This document shows, one piece after another, positions 1,505-52,852 of a stretch of DNA of 64,000 nt. Where the stretch lies: the IMG/VR virus record IMGVR_UViG_3300037067_013378, positions 71,614 through 135,613 of that record; one strand, given 5' to 3'. Made by a program: the position numbers and the translations under genes. The notes below the pieces were generated by a model, which worked only from the letters and a program-made list of their open reading frames with translations, ran no database searches and had not been told where the DNA came from. Source of the stretch: a virus. Lineage: Duplodnaviria; Caudoviricetes. How positions within the stretch are numbered: position 1 is the stretch's first letter; every line of letters begins with the position of its first letter.

Positions 1505-2515
1505 ATGTCTAAATTATGTGAGAAAAATCCTATTAAAAAATATAAATTAATTTGTATTCAATGTGGGAATGAATATGAGTTAGAAATAAAAGAATCTTTC
1601 TTTAAAAGAAATATTTATAGGAAAACTTGTTCAGATAAATGTTCTCATTCTTATTCTTCATCATTTGTAAGTGGAACTAAAAAAATATCATGTTTTGGTT
1701 GCGGAAAAGAAATTGAAGTTAATATAAGAGCAACTAAAAAAACATATTGTAAAGACTGTAAGAAAAATACAAAATATTATTTATATAAAAATAATAATAG
1801 ATATAAAATAAATGAAAATTATCAAAAAATTTGTAAATATTGTGGTCAAGAAAAATGTTTATATCCAGAAATATGTAACAATTATAAACAAATAAATACT
1901 TTTATTAAATATTTAAATTTTGATAAAACAAAAATTGGATCATTAGAATTTTATGATGAATATTATAAAGTAAAAGAATTATTATATAAAGAATATTATG
2001 AAAATGATTTATCATTATTACAAATAAGTAAAAAATATAATAATATAAATTTTAAAACATTAGCACTTATTTTTGAACGTTTTAATATTAAATTGCGAAA
2101 TCAATCTGATGCTGTATCAAATGCTTATAAAAATGGTTTAATGAAATTAAATAATGTAAATGTTTATCCATATAAATCTGGATATTATACAACAAAATTT
2201 AATGAAAAATGTTATTTTAGATCATCATATGAATTAGAATATTTTAAATTTTTAGATGAAAAAAATATATTTTTTAAATCTGAAACATTAAGAATTAATT
2301 ATTTTGATAAAGTAAAAAGAAAATTTAGAACAGCAATACCAGATATATACATACCTAATGAAAATAGAATAATTGAAATTAAAAGTAGTTGGACATATAA
2401 TAAGAAAAATATGGATGATAAAATTTTAGAATATAAAAAATTAGGATATAATGTTACTTTAATTATTGGTGGTAATAAATCATTATTTCAGAATTGTGAA
2501 ATAATTGAAAAATAA
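1505..2515 (+). CDS. Free-standing PD-(D/E)xK (TnsA-like) endonuclease with zinc-finger N-terminus
   Basis: FRSSYELEY..PDIY..IIEIKS; several CxxC pairs. Confidence 0.7.
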   Translation: MSKLCEKNPIKKYKLICIQCGNEYELEIKESFFKRNIYRKTCSDKCSHSYSSSFVSGTKKISCFGCGKEIEVNIRATKKTYCKDCKKNTKYYLYKNNNRYKINENYQKICKYCGQEKCLYPEICNNYKQINTFIKYLNFDKTKIGSLEFYDEYYKVKELLYKEYYENDLSLLQISKKYNNINFKTLALIFERFNIKLRNQSDAVSNAYKNGLMKLNNVNVYPYKSGYYTTKFNEKCYFRSSYELEYFKFLDEKNIFFKSETLRINYFDKVKRKFRTAIPDIYIPNENRIIEIKSSWTYNKKNMDDKILEYKKLGYNVTLIIGGNKSLFQNCEIIEK

Positions 2516-2565
2516 AATAAACTTTTTAAATATTTTTTAATATATAGTATAGTTTTTTGAAATAT

Positions 2566-2635
2566 GCAGGGATCATCTAATTAAGACCTTAACTTCCAGT
2601 TAGGGAATGGGTGTAAAATCGCTTTCCCTGCTCCA
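2566..2635 (+). tRNA. Atypical tRNA-Gly(TCC) with encoded CCA
   Basis: Acceptor GCAGGGA/TCCCTGC-T-CCA, CTTAA-CT TCC AG-TTAGG; no D-loop GG, no TTC T-loop. Confidence 0.7.
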
Positions 2636-2636
2636 T

Positions 2637-2709
2637 GCCGATGTAACTCAGTTGGTAGAGTAGCTGATTTGTAATCAGCAAGTCGTAGGTTCGATCCCTA
2701 TCATCGGCT
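2637..2709 (+). tRNA. tRNA-Thr(TGT)
   Basis: GCTGA-TT TGT AA-TCAGC. Confidence 0.95.
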
Positions 2710-2726
2710 CATTTTTTAAATTTATT

Positions 2727-2975
2727 ATGAATTACATATTGTTATCAAATAGAAAAAGAAAACATGAATCCTTAAATTTTGTAGGAAAAAGTGTATTAGA
2801 TGGTAGATTTATTTATGAAATTTTACTTGATAAAATAAATAAAAACGATTTTTTAATAAATCAATTACATTGTAGAATGAAAAATATTGAAATAAGACCA
2901 GAAGTAATCCTTATGCATATTTCAACAACACAAATGAAAAACACCATCAATGTATATAATCCTTATAGTTATTAA
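2727..2975 (+). CDS. Hypothetical protein
   Basis: ORF track only. Confidence 0.4.
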   Translation: MNYILLSNRKRKHESLNFVGKSVLDGRFIYEILLDKINKNDFLINQLHCRMKNIEIRPEVILMHISTTQMKNTINVYNPYSY

Positions 2976-3001
2976 TATCATTAATAATAAAAATATATTA
3001 A

Positions 3002-3442
3002 ATGTTAATTGAAAATATAAAAGATTTACAATTTAAAAAAGATGAAGTTTTCAAGAATGAATATTTTTGGATAAGATATGATAATATTTATTTAACTGAT
3101 GAGTTTGCTAAATTGTATATAAAAGAATATAAACAAAAAGTTGATAGAATTATTTTTACACCAACAACAATAAATATGAGTGTTAAACTAAATTTCATAA
3201 ATGTTAAACTTAGTATATATTTTAGAGAAATTCATTTTGATAATAATGATGAAAAGAAAAAATATAAATGGTTAGTTTGTGGGTCTTCTGGAAGTCATGG
3301 ATTTAATGGGTTAGAATATACAAAAAAAGAAACATTTGGTGTTAGAACAAGAAGAAAAGTTATTAAACATATGGTAAATCTTTTTTTAGAAAATAAAAAA
3401 TTAAATAGGATAGAAAAAATAAAAAATATTTTGTATAATTAG
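3002..3442 (+). CDS. Hypothetical protein with C-terminal RxxK[IL]xx[IL] motif
   Basis: Ends RIEKIKNILYN. Confidence 0.6.
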   Translation: MLIENIKDLQFKKDEVFKNEYFWIRYDNIYLTDEFAKLYIKEYKQKVDRIIFTPTTINMSVKLNFINVKLSIYFREIHFDNNDEKKKYKWLVCGSSGSHGFNGLEYTKKETFGVRTRRKVIKHMVNLFLENKKLNRIEKIKNILYN

Positions 3443-3457
3443 TTAATTTTATAAAAT

Positions 3458-3743
3458 GGTTCCGTAGCTCAGTTGGATAGAGCAACAGACTTCAAGTTAG
3501 GAGCTTTAATATGGAATAAGTAACATATTAAATGGACAATGCTATATCGGTGGAGTCTTAACAGGTCAAGCTGATGATAATACCGAGGGAACTTCATAAA
3601 TTATGAAGACACCGTAGAGAGTAATACGCATTGCACCTGAAATGGTGAAGATGGATTCCAGACCACAAACATTGAAAAATGGTGGTGAAAACCATAGTGG
3701 TACGCTAATCTGTAGGTCAAGGGTTCGAATCCCTTCGGAATCA
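3458..3743 (+). tRNA. tRNA-Arg(TCT) interrupted by a group I intron
   Basis: Exons 3458-3492 and 3705-3743 join to ACAGA-CT TCT AA-TCTGT; acceptor GGTTCCG/CGGAATC. Confidence 0.9.
3493..3704 (+). ncRNA. Group I self-splicing intron (212 nt, no ORF)
   Basis: 5' exon ends in U, intron ends in G; P3 CAATGC/GCATTG, P4 TCGGT/ACCGA, P8 CACC/GGTG, R/S-like GTAGAGAGTA and AAGATGGATTCC. Confidence 0.85.
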
Positions 3744-3788
3744 CTTTTTTATTTTAATGATATATAATTTAAAAATAATTTTTTGTGA

Positions 3789-4682
3789 ATGTTAATTTGT
3801 AAAATATGTAATAAAGAATTTAAAAATTTAAATGGGTTATCAAAACATTTATTAACACATCAATATAATTTAATAGATTATTATATTAAATTTGAAAATT
3901 TTAAAATTCCAAAATGTATATACTGTTCTAAAAATGCTAAATTAAGAAAAGGTATTATTTTCAATAAAACATGTTCTTCTGATGATTGTTTATCAAAAAT
4001 ATCTAAAGATAGAAAACATTCAGAAAAAAGTAAAAAAATAATATCGGATAAAAGAATAAATTATTTATTAAATAATAAAGATAAACACCCTTGGAAAAAT
4101 AATAATAAATTTATATCAAAACCATGTGAGTATTTTAAAAAAATTCTTTCAGAACATAATATAGAATATATAAGTGAGTTTAATCCAATAAAAGAACGCA
4201 ATTTTTCAATAGATATAGTAATTTTAAATAAAAAAATAGGTATAGAAATTAATGGTAATCAGCATTATAACAAAGATAAAACTTTAAAAAAATATTATAA
4301 AGAAAGAAAAGAAATAATAGAAAAAGATGGTTGGATTATATATGATATTCATTATAGTAAAGTATATGATATTAATTTTATAGAAAAATTTATACATAAT
4401 TTATTACAATTTCAAAATCAAGTGAATGTTGATTTCAATTTTAATATAAATAAAATTAAAAATAAAATATTTTGTTCAAATTGTGGCACTGAAATAACTA
4501 AATATTCTAAATCAGGATTGTGTAAAAAATGTGTAAAAACAATTTGTATTAAACGTAAATGTATAAACAGACCAACATATGATGAATTATATGAAAAAGT
4601 TAATAGATTTGGTTATAGAAAAACTGGAAAAATATATAATGTGTCTGATACTTGTATCAGAAATTGGTTAATTAAAAATTAA
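3789..4682 (+). CDS. DUF559/Vsr-like endonuclease with C2H2 and NUMOD3-like N-terminus and C-terminal HTH
   Basis: IDIVILNKKIGIEINGNQH..GWIIYDIHY; RKHSEKSKKIIS; YNVSDTCIRNWL. Confidence 0.75.
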   Translation: MLICKICNKEFKNLNGLSKHLLTHQYNLIDYYIKFENFKIPKCIYCSKNAKLRKGIIFNKTCSSDDCLSKISKDRKHSEKSKKIISDKRINYLLNNKDKHPWKNNNKFISKPCEYFKKILSEHNIEYISEFNPIKERNFSIDIVILNKKIGIEINGNQHYNKDKTLKKYYKERKEIIEKDGWIIYDIHYSKVYDINFIEKFIHNLLQFQNQVNVDFNFNINKIKNKIFCSNCGTEITKYSKSGLCKKCVKTICIKRKCINRPTYDELYEKVNRFGYRKTGKIYNVSDTCIRNWLIKN

Positions 4683-4714
4683 TGTTTATATTTGTATAAT
4701 AAAAATCAAAAACT

Positions 4715-5212
4715 ATGTTATTATTTTTCACAAAAAGGTTCAAAAAAAGAGTAGAAATATCTAAAAGTATTATTGAAGAAATCAATAAGAAAGATATTTC
4801 AAAGTGGAAATATATTTATAATGGTTTTGATATTTACATTAATAAAAGTAAAGGTATACGATATATTAAGCAAAACAAAAAATTTTACAATAAGGAGAAT
4901 GATATATTTATCAAGGTTAAAAAAAGATTTGGTTTTACCAGTGATGTCATGAAAAATATTGATTATATAATCAAGGCTATTGAGAAAAGAATCAGAAAAG
5001 AAGAAAAAGAATACGTTAAAAACAGCAAGAATAATACTGAAAAGAAAATAAAAAGAAAAATTTTAGAAGTTAAAAAGGAATTAAAGATTAAAAATTCCAC
5101 TTTACATGAACTTTCAAGAATGCCTGATGGTGGTGATGTTTTATATAAAAAAACATATAATAGGGTTAATGAATTAGAAGAAAAATTAAAAGAATTAAAA
5201 AAATTATTATAA
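4715..5212 (+). CDS. Hypothetical protein
   Basis: ORF preceded by TATATTTG promoter. Confidence 0.6.
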   Translation: MLLFFTKRFKKRVEISKSIIEEINKKDISKWKYIYNGFDIYINKSKGIRYIKQNKKFYNKENDIFIKVKKRFGFTSDVMKNIDYIIKAIEKRIRKEEKEYVKNSKNNTEKKIKRKILEVKKELKIKNSTLHELSRMPDGGDVLYKKTYNRVNELEEKLKELKKLL

Positions 5213-5214
5213 TT

Positions 5215-5667
5215 TTATTTATTTAAATCTTCTACATCAGTAAAATAATCTTCAATATTATCATTTTGAACTGTTTCTTGCCATTCATCTTTTGACATAG
5301 TTTTTTCTTCAAAAAACTCTAAATTTTCAATTTTAATGATTTTATATTTTTTTGGATGAATGTAAAATGCTGGATATCCTCTTTCAAAAGAATATGTTAA
5401 TCTTCTAAATGTTCTTGGTGATATTAAACCATTAACATATGGTAATATTATAACGGTGTTCACATCATCCACAAATTTATAAAAACTACCTCTTATTTCG
5501 GGTGTATTATAAACAAAAGGATTATCAAAATATATATTTATTAATTCCAGTGCTTGACTTTCTGCTCTTGTGTCAAATATAGATTTAGGGTGAAAAAAAT
5601 ATACTTTTTTATCACTCTTTTTTTCATTTAACATAAAATCTTTAAAATTGACAATATTTTTATTCAT
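5215..5667 (-). CDS. Hypothetical protein with capsid-targeting-like N-terminus
   Basis: MNKNIVNFKDFMLNE. Confidence 0.6.
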   Translation of the reverse strand: MNKNIVNFKDFMLNEKKSDKKVYFFHPKSIFDTRAESQALELINIYFDNPFVYNTPEIRGSFYKFVDDVNTVIILPYVNGLISPRTFRRLTYSFERGYPAFYIHPKKYKIIKIENLEFFEEKTMSKDEWQETVQNDNIEDYFTDVEDLNK

Positions 5668-16686: not shown

Positions 16687-17390
16687 TAATTTATGAGAAA
16701 AATTTATTTCTATGTAATTTTTTTAATATTATTTATATCTTGTTACACAAACAAAAATATTACAATTTCACCAATAGTTCAAGAAGAATTGCAAATTATA
16801 AATAATATTGAAATTGTTGAATATGATAGTATATCATTAATTAAAGAAGATAGTATTATATTAACAGAAACATATATAGAAGAAATAAAACATACGCCTT
16901 ATATAAAAAACAATATAGAAAAAGGAACATTAATATATCAAATTGATTCATTTTTTATTATAAATACAACAACAAGAGTTGAAGCTAAAATAATTAAAGA
17001 AAAATATGATACCATACCTAAGTATATAATAGAAACTTTCTCTAAAAATAAATCTGGAAAAATTAAAAAATATATTATACCTGTTGGTAATATTATGAAT
17101 ATGGAATTAATATCTTTAGATGAAAAAGCTTTTAATATAAATAAAATTAGCTCAGATAATCAAGAAGTGAGTGATAATGTTATAGCAGAATGGATTTGGG
17201 GTGTTACCCCCTTAAAATAGGAAATTATACATTAATTCTTAAAGCTATAATAAAAGAAAACAATACAAGTAAAGATATTATCGTTTTTGATAAACAAATA
17301 AATGTTTTAAATAAACCAAAAAAACATTTATTATTTAATATTAAACATGATGATATAATAAAAAATAAAAATAACATTTTATATTTAGAA

Positions 17391-18719
17391 ATGAACTACC
17401 ACTAAACTAATGATTTAGTAGTTTCAGGTTTCATAGACTCGTCTACTGACAACGCCTCCACCTGTTTTTGTTTAATGTCCGACTCAATTCCTGAACCAGA
17501 CAATATTTTTAGACCTTGTTTTAAAATATTTTTACTTGCGTTAAAATCTCTATCATGATTTTCTCCACAAGAAGGACAAATCCATTCTCTAATGTTTAAA
17601 TTTAAATCTTGGTAAATCCATCCACAATTAGAACACATTTTTGATGAAGGAAAATATCTATCTATTTTAATAAAATGTTTATCGTTCCATTCACATTTAT
17701 ATTCCAGTTGTCTATAAAATTCACCCAAACTAACATCAGAAAATGATTGAGCTAAACTATGATTTTTCATCATATTTTTTACTGATAAATCTTCAACACA
17801 AATGATATCGTGGTTTTTGACTATTTCTGTGCTAATTTTATGTAGATAATCTTTTCTAATATTAGTTATTTTTTCATATATTATTGCAAGTTTTTTTCTT
17901 TGTTTATTTCTACTTGAACTATTTTTTACTTTTTTTGATAATTGTCTTTGTTTATGTTTTAATTTCTTTATATTATTTTTTAATGTTTTTATATTTTCAT
18001 AAATTTTTCCATCTGAAAGTATAGCTAAATCTTTTATACCAGTATCTATTCCTATTTTTGAACCAGTTTTTTCAAACTGTTCATGTTGAACTTCACAAGT
18101 TATTGATACATAATATTTTCCTGTTGTTGATTTAGATATCGTAGCAAATAATATTTTATCATTAATTTCTTTATATAAACATATTTTTATTCCTTCATTA
18201 AATTTTGGAATATACAATATATTATTTTTTATGGTTACAGATTGTGGTGTTTTAAATGACTGTCTATCATATTTTGATTTAAATTGTGGAAATTTAGTTT
18301 GTTTTCTAAAGAATTTCATATATGAAACATCTAAATTTCTTAGAGCAGACTGAAGTGATTGACTATTAATTTCTTTTAACCAAATAAAATTTTCATCCTT
18401 TTTTAACTGAGTTAAATCATTTGCATTATCATAATAATTAAGAGTTTTCTTATCTTCAATATAAGATTCTTTTCTTTTGTTTAAATAATGATTAAAAACA
18501 AATCTACAAGCACCGAAATGTTTAGACAACAATATTTCTTGTTCTTTTGTTGGATAAATTCTAAACTTAAATGATTTAAATATAGTTTTCATTATAACTA
18601 TATATTAAATTTTTTAAGTCTATTTTTACATTTTTTATACTTTTTTGTAGATTTTTTTTTAATTATTTTTAAATTATATTTGAAATTCATCCACGAAACT
18701 AAAGATTTCGTGGTTTTCT
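17391..18719 (-). mobile_element. IS200/IS605-family (IS1341-type, TnpB-only) insertion sequence
   Basis: Related subterminal hairpins CCACGAAA-N7-TTTCGTGG (18691-18713) and CCACTAAA-N7-TTTAGTAG (~17399-17421); right end TCAT, flanking TTGAA; no TSD. Confidence 0.8.
17402..18592 (-). CDS. tnpB: RNA-guided endonuclease TnpB
   Basis: HTH FKFRIYPT, RuvC GIDTG / VEDL / DRDFNA, zinc ribbon CSNCG..CPSCG. Confidence 0.95.
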   Translation of the reverse strand: MKTIFKSFKFRIYPTKEQEILLSKHFGACRFVFNHYLNKRKESYIEDKKTLNYYDNANDLTQLKKDENFIWLKEINSQSLQSALRNLDVSYMKFFRKQTKFPQFKSKYDRQSFKTPQSVTIKNNILYIPKFNEGIKICLYKEINDKILFATISKSTTGKYYVSITCEVQHEQFEKTGSKIGIDTGIKDLAILSDGKIYENIKTLKNNIKKLKHKQRQLSKKVKNSSSRNKQRKKLAIIYEKITNIRKDYLHKISTEIVKNHDIICVEDLSVKNMMKNHSLAQSFSDVSLGEFYRQLEYKCEWNDKHFIKIDRYFPSSKMCSNCGWIYQDLNLNIREWICPSCGENHDRDFNASKNILKQGLKILSGSGIESDIKQKQVEALSVDESMKPETTKSLV

Positions 18720-26033: not shown

Positions 26034-26049
26034 AGTTTTAATTTTTTTG

Positions 26050-26135
26050 AGATGGGTGTGAGATTCGAACTCACGCTGGCATTTTATTGCAACAATTTTG
26101 CAGATTGTTCCCTTCAACCACTCAGGCAACCCATC
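26050..26135 (-). tRNA. tRNA-Cys(GCA) with long variable arm
   Basis: ACAAT-CT GCA AA-ATTGT, U73, 86 nt. Confidence 0.88.
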
Positions 26136-27253: not shown

Positions 27254-28531
27254 TTATTTTTTACTCTTATCATATGTTCTGGACTTAGCTTTGAAAGATA
27301 ATCTGTTAAAATTCGACCTACAAATTTTAGATTTCAATATATCATCTTTTGCTATAAAAACCCAACCTTCTGCTAATTGTGTTGGATTATTACCGAAAAC
27401 AGTGTAAAAATTATCTACATCTTTAAGTAACATTTCAGATGTTTCTGGTAATTTAAAATTATTATCAAGAATAGGAACTGTGTTTAACATCATTTCTTTA
27501 ATCATATCAATGAATTCATCATATGGGTAATAAAGAGATGTTTTAATATCAAAACTATTGTAAAAACAAATAGTTTTTTCTTTCAGTTTATAAATATTAC
27601 CTTGAATACCATCACCAACCAATTCACCTTGCAAAGAAAAATTAGGAATATTAAATTTAGAAGAAAATTCCCTCATTTTTTCTTCTACATTTAATTTTAT
27701 TGTAGTACTCCAATAATAGTTTACCAATTCATCATTCTCTGGTTTTTTGTAATTTATATTTCTACCACAAACACTAAACTCACCATTTTTTAAATTACAT
27801 GCGATGCTTGTACCTTCAAGTTTTTCGGTCTTATAATACAAGAATTGTTTTAATTTCTCATAATTTTTTTCCAAATTTTCAACTCTTTCTTCATCACTAA
27901 CCAAAATACCTACTTGTGCTAAATCACCAAGTACAATACCACCGTTAGAATTAACTTCAGGTGCTACATATTGAATAATACCTATAATATCAGTAACATC
28001 AAAATCTTCATCTAAAACTCTAACGTTTTTATTATATTCATTATTTGTTTGTTCAATAAAAACCTTATTGTTATTTGTAAATATTTTAGTGTTTTTATTA
28101 TTCAAAATTGATAATGGAAAACAAATACCTTGTGAAATCTGACCAAAAATTTCTCTTGTTTTAATACGAAATTTTCTTTCCCTTAAAAATTCAAATTCTG
28201 GTCTTGTGTTTTGTTTAGAAATTTCTTCCATTTCTTTCTTTATAGAAATTTTTTCTTCATCAACTTTTGATTTAGATAATTTCTTCTGTAATTCTTTCCA
28301 ACTCTGTTGTAATTCTTGTGATAAACCATCAGGCAAAACAGAATCAACTTCAACATATATACACAAATCACCAGCTTTAAACTCATTCTTCTTAACTACA
28401 ACATTCCAACCTCTAACTTTAGCTAATTCTAAATTATCAGAATCTTCAATTTGTGAAATATTTAAAATCTTTGCAACAGTTGCAAGTTTTCTGATATTTG
28501 CTGTTTCATTGATGTTTTGTACGTTTTCCAT
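27254..28531 (-). CDS. RNA ligase, DRB0094/Rnl2-related family
   Basis: RKLATV..GWNVVV..DSVLP N-domain; TEKLEGTS (motif I), QGELVG, EGWV, SFKAKS. Confidence 0.9.
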   Translation of the reverse strand: MENVQNINETANIRKLATVAKILNISQIEDSDNLELAKVRGWNVVVKKNEFKAGDLCIYVEVDSVLPDGLSQELQQSWKELQKKLSKSKVDEEKISIKKEMEEISKQNTRPEFEFLRERKFRIKTREIFGQISQGICFPLSILNNKNTKIFTNNNKVFIEQTNNEYNKNVRVLDEDFDVTDIIGIIQYVAPEVNSNGGIVLGDLAQVGILVSDEERVENLEKNYEKLKQFLYYKTEKLEGTSIACNLKNGEFSVCGRNINYKKPENDELVNYYWSTTIKLNVEEKMREFSSKFNIPNFSLQGELVGDGIQGNIYKLKEKTICFYNSFDIKTSLYYPYDEFIDMIKEMMLNTVPILDNNFKLPETSEMLLKDVDNFYTVFGNNPTQLAEGWVFIAKDDILKSKICRSNFNRLSFKAKSRTYDKSKK

Positions 28532-32973: not shown

Positions 32974-32975
32974 AG

Positions 32976-33057
32976 TACCCCTAGAAGGACTCAAACCTTC
33001 ACGCCTTTCGGCACATGATCCTAAGTCATGGATGTCTATCAATTCCACCATAGGGGC
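32976..33057 (-). tRNA. tRNA-Leu(TAG)
   Basis: CATGA-CT TAG GA-TCATG; A19/U56 variant. Confidence 0.9.
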
Positions 33058-41258: not shown

Positions 41259-41331
41259 GGAGTGATGACCGAGTTGCTCAAGGTGTTGGTCTGAAAAACC
41301 AATAATGTAGGTTGGATTCCTACTCACTCCA
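41259..41331 (+). tRNA. tRNA-Phe(GAA), C19/G56 variant
   Basis: TTGGT-CT GAA AA-ACCAA; T-loop TTGGATT. Confidence 0.85.
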
Positions 41332-41378
41332 CTCAGAACCAATATTATTTAATATATACTTTAAAAATAAAGTGTTAT

Positions 41379-42703: not shown

Positions 42704-42776
42704 GGGGGTGTAGTTTAACTGAAAAAAACCTGACACTACGGATGTCATAATGGGAGTTTGAATCTTCTCACCCTCA
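42704..42776 (+). tRNA. tRNA-Arg(ACG), A19/U56 variant
   Basis: TGACA-CT ACG GA-TGTCA. Confidence 0.85.
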
Positions 42777-42798
42777 CTAAAAAATAAAAAATTATATT

Positions 42799-43027: not shown

Positions 43028-43116
43028 GGAAGGTCGAAATGGACAGAGCTTATCCGTTTTGAAAACGGTGATGTCAGTGAGTAACTGATGTAGGAGTTGG
43101 ATTCTCCTACCTTCCG
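43028..43116 (+). tRNA. Atypical tRNA-Ser(TGA)
   Basis: Acceptor GGAAGGT/ACCTTCC-G, long variable arm, CCGT-TT TGA AA-ACGG; weak D-arm, TTGG T-loop. Confidence 0.7.
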
Positions 43117-43205
43117 CTTTTTGAATGATTTATAATTCACTATCTTATATTTTTTAAGTTATTGAATGATTTATCATACGTATAAGGTTTAAATCTTATT
43201 AATAT

Positions 43206-50818: not shown

Positions 50819-51329
50819 AACATTAAAAGAAAATAAATGGTTATCGTTAAAGATAATGAAATATCCAGAAAAAGGTGTACATGGTTATGTTTATTCACAT
50901 GAAACAAGATGTGATGGGAAAATTGTTTCTATCTTACCATATAGAATAAAATATGGAAAAATTGAATATCTTTTAAGGAGAGAAGTTACACCATGTTGGG
51001 GTGTAGATAAACAAGTTATTAGTTCAATTACTGGTGGTGTAGAAAATGATGATCCACATACAACGGTTATTCATGAAATATTAGAAGAGGCTGGATATGA
51101 TGTAACTAAAGAGCAATTAATACCACTTGGTACATCTTTTGGTATTAAGAGTTCAGATACAGTTTATTATTATTTTTCAGTTAATCTTACTGATATGAAA
51201 AGAGAAGTTGCAAAAGGTGATGGTTCAGAATTAGAAGCGCAAGCTGAATGTGTTAGGAGTAAAAATATTGATGGTGCTGTTGTTCCTTTATTATATACAG
51301 CTTATTATTTATTACAAAAAGAATTATAA
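50805..51329 (+). CDS. NUDIX hydrolase
   Basis: GGVE..HEILEEAGY. Confidence 0.8.
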   Translation: MKTIETLKENKWLSLKIMKYPEKGVHGYVYSHETRCDGKIVSILPYRIKYGKIEYLLRREVTPCWGVDKQVISSITGGVENDDPHTTVIHEILEEAGYDVTKEQLIPLGTSFGIKSSDTVYYYFSVNLTDMKREVAKGDGSELEAQAECVRSKNIDGAVVPLLYTAYYLLQKEL

Positions 51330-51333
51330 TAAT

Positions 51334-51795
51334 ATGGCACTACCACATTTTGGAGGTAAATTTAATAATATTGATATTATTTATAATTCATTATTTGAAA
51401 TATCTACTAATATAGATAATAAAAATAATTTATTAAGAAATAATATATTAGGAATATATAATAATAAAATGATTTTTTTTGAATTTGATAAATCATTTGA
51501 AATAATAAATAAACATATTGGAGAAATTATTGATTTTAAAATAAATATTCAAAATAAAAAAGGAGAAAACGTTTTTAATCTTAAATTTAACAATTTTAAA
51601 TTTATTGGATATTTAAATTTTTTAAATTTTGATTATAATTCAAATGATGAAAAAAATTTAGAAGTTAAATATGATTTCACAGATATTCAATATATTAATA
51701 ATAAAAATTTAAAACAGTTGCGTATTGATAAAATAAATGATATCTTTGACGTTAAAAATAATGATTATATTATAAAAAAGGAATTTTTGTTATAA
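51334..51795 (+). CDS. Hypothetical protein, weakly tail-tube-like
   Basis: MALPHF..IYNSLFEI; RIDKINDIF. Confidence 0.45.
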   Translation: MALPHFGGKFNNIDIIYNSLFEISTNIDNKNNLLRNNILGIYNNKMIFFEFDKSFEIINKHIGEIIDFKINIQNKKGENVFNLKFNNFKFIGYLNFLNFDYNSNDEKNLEVKYDFTDIQYINNKNLKQLRIDKINDIFDVKNNDYIIKKEFLL

Positions 51796-51800
51796 AAAAT

Positions 51801-51988
51801 ATAATCGACCATACGCTGTGTAAACAGAGGAAACTCCCGACATCATAGCTTAATTCAGGAGATTTAAAAATCGTTTGTACTGAAAAGGATGCAACCAGAA
51901 ACAGTTTAAGAAGGTGAGCTATTCGATAATAACAAGGTTTGGGCGAAGATAAATGTATGGATAGAACAGAATCGGGGTTACGGGTTAT
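51801..51988 (+). ncRNA. rnpB: Minimal RNase P RNA
   Basis: GAGGAAACTCCCGA and AACAGAATCGGGGTTA form P4 with compensatory changes; P2 CCATAC/GTATGG; P3 CTGT/ACAG. Confidence 0.85.
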
Positions 51989-52036
51989 TTTTTTATTTCA
52001 AAAATATTTATTATATTTACACCAAAATATATTGTT

Positions 52037-52852
52037 ATGAAATTTAAAGCTAAATTTCCAATACCAACTAAAGATTTCCAAAAAATAGAATGGGTTGATT
52101 TTATTGTTGAATCTAATGTTGAAGAAAATTCAACTGCTGGAGATGAAATTGAATATAAAGCAATTATACCTGATTTTATGTTCGATGAACTTGCTGATAG
52201 TGAACCACGTTTTAAAACTAAATATGATATTAATAATCGTAATGTAAGTGGTTTATTTCCTAAAAGTATAGTTAGGAGAAAATTTCAAAAAACTCAAACT
52301 TCAATATTGTTATCTTCTCTTAGAGATTATTTTAATGAATTAACAACTCTATTAGTTGATAAACATTCAGTTCAAACTGAGAGTATGAAAAAGAAAATAT
52401 TTATTTCTTTTAATCATAGTAATGAACACACTACAAACGGATTAAATTGTGCTTATACTGGTGAAAGAATTAATCAAACGTTTAGATATTTTATTGGATA
52501 TGAAGTGATGACAGATAAATTTTCAAATCTTCTAAATAGAAAAGTTGAAAAACGTTACATCACAAAAATCGGATACGCCTCACCTATGGCATCTGTTCAA
52601 TTATACAATTCTCATTTTAAAGAAAGAGAAGATTTGTTTTTACCGATACCAAATCTTAATGAAAGTGTAGAAGATTTTGAGAAAAGATATTCTATTATAG
52701 ATTGGACAGAAGAACGAGAACAATTTTGTGAAAGAATAAAACAAACTTTCATACAAGTGAATAATGAGTTGGCTGAATTTTTGAAAGATATTGATTCAGA
52801 AAAAATTGATTTTTTAATGTCTTCAAATAAATTAAAAATTTTAGGTCAATAA
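52037..52852 (+). CDS. Hypothetical protein
   Basis: 271-aa ORF. Confidence 0.7.
   Translation: MKFKAKFPIPTKDFQKIEWVDFIVESNVEENSTAGDEIEYKAIIPDFMFDELADSEPRFKTKYDINNRNVSGLFPKSIVRRKFQKTQTSILLSSLRDYFNELTTLLVDKHSVQTESMKKKIFISFNHSNEHTTNGLNCAYTGERINQTFRYFIGYEVMTDKFSNLLNRKVEKRYITKIGYASPMASVQLYNSHFKEREDLFLPIPNLNESVEDFEKRYSIIDWTEEREQFCERIKQTFIQVNNELAEFLKDIDSEKIDFLMSSNKLKILGQ

Follow-up and report, generated by a model that had tools for sequence, protein, structure and literature searches.

RNase P RNA is a universal and ancient ribozyme that trims new tRNAs, and to our knowledge the sole natural form without a specificity domain (S-domain) known so far is type T, from one hyperthermophilic archaeal family. 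Does a phage carry another such RNA and, if so, from which type would it derive and what would it do during infection? We consider this question for a window of 64,000 nt at the right-hand end of an IMG/VR record of 135.6 kb, in which a phage RNase P RNA had been placed at 51801-51988. Judged from sequence comparison, the evidence below confirms a real, conserved and phage-borne minimal RNase P RNA (mini-RNA) at 51795-51994.

First of all, the extent of the gene and the ease with which it is detected need to be established. A covariance model built from eight hand-checked sequences (R1) finds the mini-RNA gene on the + strand, ~200 nt long, with 184.5 bits and the model complete from position 1 to 206, giving ends that are slightly wider than those first noted; the same scan finds one copy in the record. 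A GC peak at 51803-51993 matches the element exactly, with ~40% GC versus 22% for the genome, and the element lies between two ORFs on the same strand, at 51250-51795 and 52037-52852. Standard Rfam models, on the other hand, largely pass over the gene. A scan of the whole window at gathering thresholds returns tRNAs only, and the models for type T (RF02357), bacterial type A (RF00010) and bacterial type B (RF00011) have zero matches on the record at E<=10. In a permissive scan, the archaeal model RF00373 aligns end to end (model 1-288) with 53 bits and an E-value of 4.9e-14, below its gathering score of 84 bits, and squeezes 117 S-domain model positions into 35 nt. A search with RNase P models thus recovers the gene through one sub-threshold model. 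RF00373 has zero matches on five related records, though two of these (G001 and G003) carry copies detected by BLAST or R1, and the family relatives are unmatched by it. The window copy is the AT-rich extreme of its family and falls below every Rfam gathering threshold. Taken as a single sequence, its minimum-free-energy fold is no better than that of shuffles (z +0.67), and promoter and terminator scans at the locus also do no better than shuffles. What upholds the placement is the full-length RF00373 match, the GC peak, the intergenic position and, above all, covariation far beyond chance.

The claim that P1-P4 and the terminal conserved regions are present stands as well: the elements of the catalytic core are all there and covary (Table 1). 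P4 reads exactly as predicted, AAC-U-CCCGA with UCGGG-GUU, and shows compensatory changes across 58 relatives. CR-IV of the window copy, also given as GAUAAAUG, is present as first noted and has an A where bacteria usually have a G.

Table 1. Features of the mini-RNA gene and elbow-variant tRNAs, in window coordinates.
Feature	Position	Strand	Observation
P1	51796-51807 with 51981-51993	+	12/12 pairs changed on both sides (58-sequence alignment)
P2 CCAUAC/GUAUGG	51809-51814 with 51955-51960	+	100% paired, 5/6 pairs doubly changed (8 sequences)
P3 hairpin, CUGU GUAA ACAG	51816-51827	+	Covaries; length variable across the family
CR-I / J3-4 and P4 5' strand GAGGAAACUCCCGAC	51827-51841	+	GAGGAAA-UC invariant, 58 sequences
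P4 AAC-U-CCCGA with UCGGGGUU	51832-51840 with 51972-51979	+	Bulged U at 51835
P5 CAUC/GAUG	51841-51844 with 51888-51891	+	99.6% paired, 4/4 pairs doubly changed
S-domain remnant	51845-51887	+	43 nt between the P5 strands; P7 and hairpin covary
Remnant, in order: J5/7 AUA, P6 strand GCUU, P7 UUCAG/CUGAA, hairpin GAUU..AAUC, J GUUUGUA	51848-51851 (P6 strand)		
J5/15 CAA, P15 (CCAG/UUGG), L15 internal loop, P16, P17	51892-51942	+	P15, P16 and P17 covary
GGU, 3' side of L15	51936-51938	+	Invariant in 8-sequence alignment; GG at least 90% conserved in 58
P17 loop GGUGAGCUA carrying P6 3' strand GAGC	51916-51919 (GAGC)	+	
CR-IV / J15-2 AGAUAAAUG	51947-51955	+	Between P15 and P2; AGAU-AAUG invariant in 58, partly by construction (see text)
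CR-V / J2-4 and P4 3' strand AACAGAAUCGGGGUUA	51965-51980	+	
Elbow-variant tRNAs	32975-33057, 41259-41332, 42704-42777, 43028-43117		tRNA-Phe(GAA) at 41259-41332, tRNA-Arg(ACG) at 42704-42777; tRNA-Ala(UGC) elsewhere in G000

Second, the architecture is borne out by compensatory change. Among eight hand-checked relatives, 95.7% of cells are paired versus 32-41% in slid controls, a value reached by none of 500 shuffles, and 45 of the 59 pairs have changed on both sides. In 58 distinct relatives, aligned by fitting to the R1 model and thus leaning toward structure, 93.8% of cells are paired versus 32-45% in slid controls, and 42 of the 47 nested pairs are doubly changed; structural conservation is clear on both counts. 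P1, P2, P3 and P5 follow one another in the canonical order, and in each of them 87-100% of cells are paired and double changes occur. As a pseudoknot, P4 lies outside the R1 model; it is paired in 56-58 of the 58 relatives at all eight positions, at least two standard pair types occur at five of these, and RNAalifold predicts the helix unaided. Its third pair is C-G in 37 and G-C in 21 of the 58 relatives, and C-G is the majority state of the family, not a peculiarity of the window copy. The P6 pseudoknot, in which GCUU of J5/7 pairs with GAGC of the P17 loop, shows two compensatory events, to A-U in L087 and to C-G in L078. The core motifs GAGGAAA-UC, AGAU-AAUG, ACA-AA and the AA of J5/15 are invariant in the 58 sequences, the invariance of AGAU-AAUG being partly by construction, since the search pattern required it. 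A chance match is rejected on this covariation.

Change in the RNA can also be followed over a shorter distance. A contig from a related phage (X1), which extends over the RNA into the first part of the downstream ORF, has 7 differences in the ~200-nt RNA versus ~41 in the next 240 nt, and three of the seven (at 51878, 51885 and 51964) move toward the family consensus. No sequencing run recorded as RNA holds the stretch. One run labelled as cDNA and flagged as probably DNA (X2) yields a single 152-nt contig on 51827-51977, whose bare flanks are not evidence.

Third, how much of the S-domain is gone? In bacterial RNase P, it is P10-P14 with CR-II/III that, as one module, stack on the tRNA elbow. 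The predicted loss holds for this module, which is absent from the window copy according to the RF00373 alignment and to the short distance between the P5 strands; it does not hold for the whole domain, because a 43-nt remnant is retained. Within this remnant, P7 has 5 bp and the hairpin is short and variable in the family, and the module as a whole, which replaces the S-domain, is moderately conserved. P18 is missing from the window copy and present as a hairpin in some relatives. The length is about half the usual bacterial one, as had been proposed, at ~200 nt versus 405 nt for a canonical Achromobacter copy. Some members appear to be reduced differently (L081, L086, L080 and L079), and by eye L086 (~207 nt) and L081 seemingly keep S-domain-like segments.

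The family was assembled by pattern and by model. BLAST finds a 64%-identical copy in the 344-kb relative. A first DNA pattern was too strict, and its two matches were chance matches inside coding sequence. The pattern then used, built from the shared cores, consists of GAGGAAANTC, a gap, AGATRAATG, a gap and ACARAA; it selects 16 loci in viral contigs, 88 in metagenomes and 14 in genome assemblies, and R1 confirms 17 matches in the smaller and 68 in the larger of these sets. This gives at least 66 distinct family members from large phage contigs, metagenomes and one cultured Achromobacter genome, a lower bound that is biased toward pattern-matching copies, because only pattern-selected loci were scored with R1. 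Lengths in the larger set run from 192 to 239 nt and GC contents from 31 to 66%. R1 also detects a divergent copy, with 86 bits, in a 675-kb relative, and zero copies in a complete 640-kb relative (G002); the gene is thus accessory and dispensable. Four family members compared by BLAST with cultured-phage records have no match there. We found no description of a phage-encoded RNase P RNA in the literature, our coverage of which is incomplete, so that this absence is not proof of novelty; a survey of huge phages leaves RNase P unmentioned (PMC7162821), and for megaphages only tRNAs and one tmRNA are reported (PMC8172020).

From which type does the mini-RNA descend? Several features point to bacterial type A, rather than the archaeal minimal type T, as the source. 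RF00010 is the best Rfam model for the GC-richer members, over its whole length, with 118.5 bits for L086, 82.7 for L104, 80.7 for L080 and 61-64 for L143, L081, L084 and L076; its gathering score of 100 bits is passed by L086 only, the other scored relatives lying at 61-83 bits, and the window copy has no match. Together with this model preference, P6, the GGU of L15, P15-P17 and an occasional P18 form the basis for type A descent. With type A (RF00010; E. coli M1 RNA, rnpB), the mini-RNA has in common P1-P5, the P4 pseudoknot with its bulged U, CR-I, CR-IV and CR-V, the P6 pairing between J5/7 and the P17 loop, P15-P17, an L15 with GGU and, in some relatives, P18. In E. coli the order is P5, AUA, P6 strand, P7, the same as in the mini-RNA. 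The differences are equally clear. Type A RNAs have ~350-400 nt and the mini-RNA ~200 nt; it is without P10-P14 and CR-II/III, has one hairpin in place of P8 and P9 and, in the window copy, no P18; its P2 has 6 bp and the third pair of P4 is C-G in most members; and it is a second, accessory copy, carried on phages and on tRNA-array islands.

Like type T, the mini-RNA occurs naturally, has a length of ~200 nt, retains the catalytic domain (C-domain) with most of the S-domain lost, and escapes the standard model. Type T RNAs have an archaeal type-A-like C-domain, a 3-bp P2, a shortened P15, a 2-nt linker between P5 and P15 and a GC content of 61-78%, and their protein partners are Pop5, Rpp30 and Rpp29 (PMC3579882); they are catalytically active, and the minimal form occurs only in Thermoproteaceae according to the P finder study (PMC7191817). 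Membership of type T is rejected for the mini-RNA on its 6-bp P2, its 3-nt CAA linker and the lack of an RF02357 match. The resemblance is confined to architecture and reflects convergent reduction, not shared ancestry. Engineered bacterial RNAs reduced to the C-domain (such as the Eco CP RPR) are a further parallel: they have the same catalytic domain without the S-domain and still cleave substrates, with reduced efficiency (PMC5839562). These, however, are laboratory truncations, whereas the mini-RNA is natural and conserved and, unlike them, keeps P7, one hairpin and a conserved joining strand.

The record that carries the window copy is part of the genome of a very large phage of the T4-like kind. 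Among its genes are those for a T4-type major capsid protein (gp23) and a portal (gp20), relatives of the portal including 675-, 640- and 344-kb records; the record's CheckV completeness is 19%, and it uses the standard genetic code with an ORF cover of 89%. Besides 28 tRNAs, it has genes for an RNA ligase, a ClpB-like ATPase and TnpB. The ligase, with a PHA02142 OB-fold domain, lies amid tRNA genes (27254-28531, - strand) and may serve in tRNA repair; the TnpB gene, of the IS605 OrfB transposon-type nuclease family, lies at 17402-18592 (- strand). Also seen were a 1235-aa phage protein with a Cas9-type RuvC_III domain (L004:1676-5383, + strand; G000 1676-5383), a hybrid histidine kinase with PAS and receiver domains (L005:10722-12764, + strand) and an ankyrin-repeat protein (L007:12600-13769, - strand). 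Among the tRNAs, a tRNA-Cys(GCA) of 87 nt (26049-26135, - strand) is atypical among Cys tRNAs in its long variable arm. The ORF downstream of the mini-RNA has 38 homologs, and exact-word searches with the ORFs on either side brought up no related locus among viral contigs.

Proximity to tRNA genes is a recurrent feature of the family. A same-strand tRNA lies within 30 nt of the mini-RNA in 21 of the 66 members and within 3.5 kb in 37, and 43 have a tRNA anywhere in the locus; in L076 a tRNA-Thr gene flanks it on either side, separated from it by ~5 nt. The window copy has its nearest same-strand tRNA 3,014 nt upstream, and at this distance of 3 kb co-transcription with tRNAs is not evident. 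The cultured bacterium Achromobacter anxifer LMG 26857 has a 224-nt member inside an array of 32 tRNAs (L104 6073-6297, equal to G019:C5:14076-14299), and elsewhere in the same genome a normal 405-nt rnpB (G019:C15:118742-119146), which makes the mini-RNA an extra copy travelling with tRNA arrays. No T4 portal was found in the Achromobacter genome, a result of little weight since the control also matched nowhere. Other carriers have a tmRNA (100.8 bits; L076:6-363, - strand) and a tRNA with a CUA anticodon, likely an amber suppressor (L082:3246-3318, - strand).

What, then, would the RNA do? Bacterial RnpA binds the C-domain and the 5' leader of the substrate, and in type A RNAs the GGU of L15 pairs with the 3'-CCA end of the tRNA. 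We consider it likely that the mini-RNA serves as an accessory catalytic subunit, working with host RnpA in the maturation of phage tRNAs; the pattern of conservation favours an enzyme. A bacterial type A RNA would have lost P10-P14, the elbow reader with CR-II/III, and in the window copy also P18. The remaining RNA would fold into a catalytic core and recruit host RnpA, and pre-tRNAs would be positioned via the acceptor stem, the 3' CCA end and the leader instead of the elbow. The RNA could then remove the 5' leaders from the numerous tRNA transcripts of the phage, which would add processing capacity during infection; in relatives with ~5-nt spacers between tRNAs, processing of the tRNA ends would also release the mini-RNA itself. 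Such a mechanism is feasible, since type T is active (PMC7191817) and the bacterial C-domain is catalytic on its own, if less efficient (PMC5839562).

It is also conceivable, though unlikely, that the RNA is an active ribozyme with changed substrates, acting mainly on phage tRNAs with unusual elbows, on tRNA-like elements, or on phage mRNAs and operon spacers. The original prediction had linked the loss of the S-domain to altered elbows in the phage's own tRNAs, and in this record the alteration is indeed found: T-loop position 56 is U or G in 5 of the 28 tRNAs (Ala-UGC, Leu-UAG, Phe-GAA, Arg-ACG and Ser-UGA, the last, at 43028, being missed by Rfam at gathering score). The D-loop GG is missing or changed in those elbow-variant tRNAs that were inspected, and these matching changes suggest a swapped elbow pair. 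The moderately conserved remnant module could, moreover, form a new recognition element. The link, however, is not a general one. Variants at position 56 number 0 of 26 tRNAs in L076, 0 of 32 in L104 and 0 of 13 in L086, and with canonical T-loops in these carriers no family-wide elbow link is shown; AT pressure on the record's genome may instead lie behind the variant elbows. The conserved GGU of L15 likewise points to ordinary recognition of tRNA precursors by their 3' CCA.

More improbable still is that the RNA acts as a decoy or regulator, the C-domain being kept to sequester or redirect host RnpA and so shift host tRNA and mRNA processing toward the phage. The C-domain is established as the part that binds RnpA, and the carriers are mostly without an RnpA of their own: none was found in 15 of 16 carrier records, among them genomes with completeness values of 98% and 100%. 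Without its S-domain the RNA would be a weaker catalyst on tRNA (PMC5839562), and given the poor in vitro performance of ribozymes consisting of the C-domain only, it may have a different role. A decoy, however, would have no need of what is most strictly conserved, namely the active site and substrate contacts (the context of the bulged U in P4, the AA of J5/15, the GGU of L15 and ACAGAA), and its close packing into tRNA arrays is consistent with an enzyme working on those transcripts. The one exception among the carriers, G018 (the record of L091), has an RnpA homolog (PF00825, 50 bits) 19 kb from its mini-RNA; with the two on one phage (G018:C1:35853-36140 and 16730-16957), an all-phage holoenzyme could be formed. 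Finally, that the gene is a decaying remnant of a captured host rnpB with no present function is scarcely credible: it is truncated, below Rfam thresholds and absent from one complete relative, but decay is excluded by the covariation, with 66 copies at 31-66% GC sharing the same architecture and compensatory changes in every helix, and the smaller number of differences in the RNA than in the adjoining ORF of X1 also speaks against it.

An accessory enzyme that works with host RnpA thus remains the preferred reading. More tentatively, and with some doubt on our part, it might be extended to a whole class: large phages and mobile tRNA-array islands would carry an RNase P that is independent of the elbow by virtue of the module replacing the S-domain, and a phage-directed holoenzyme, with host or phage RnpA, would process phage tRNA arrays, release its own RNA from them and sustain the supply of tRNA should host RNase P become limiting or be switched off.

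What is new here is a structural variant of a known ribozyme, a second reduction, this time from the bacterial type and borne by a virus, with a function that we infer. If true, the phage holoenzyme would be the first viral RNase P, with the smallest natural bacterial-type P RNA. A second and independent reduction would show that, in vivo and in ordinary bacteria, the catalytic domain suffices by itself, and it would also show that standard annotation thresholds miss such genes. The family provides natural minimal ribozymes for structural and mechanistic work, and the copy in a cultured Achromobacter makes experiments possible. For the phages themselves, the takeover of translation, through tRNAs, tmRNA and synthetases, would be extended to tRNA maturation.
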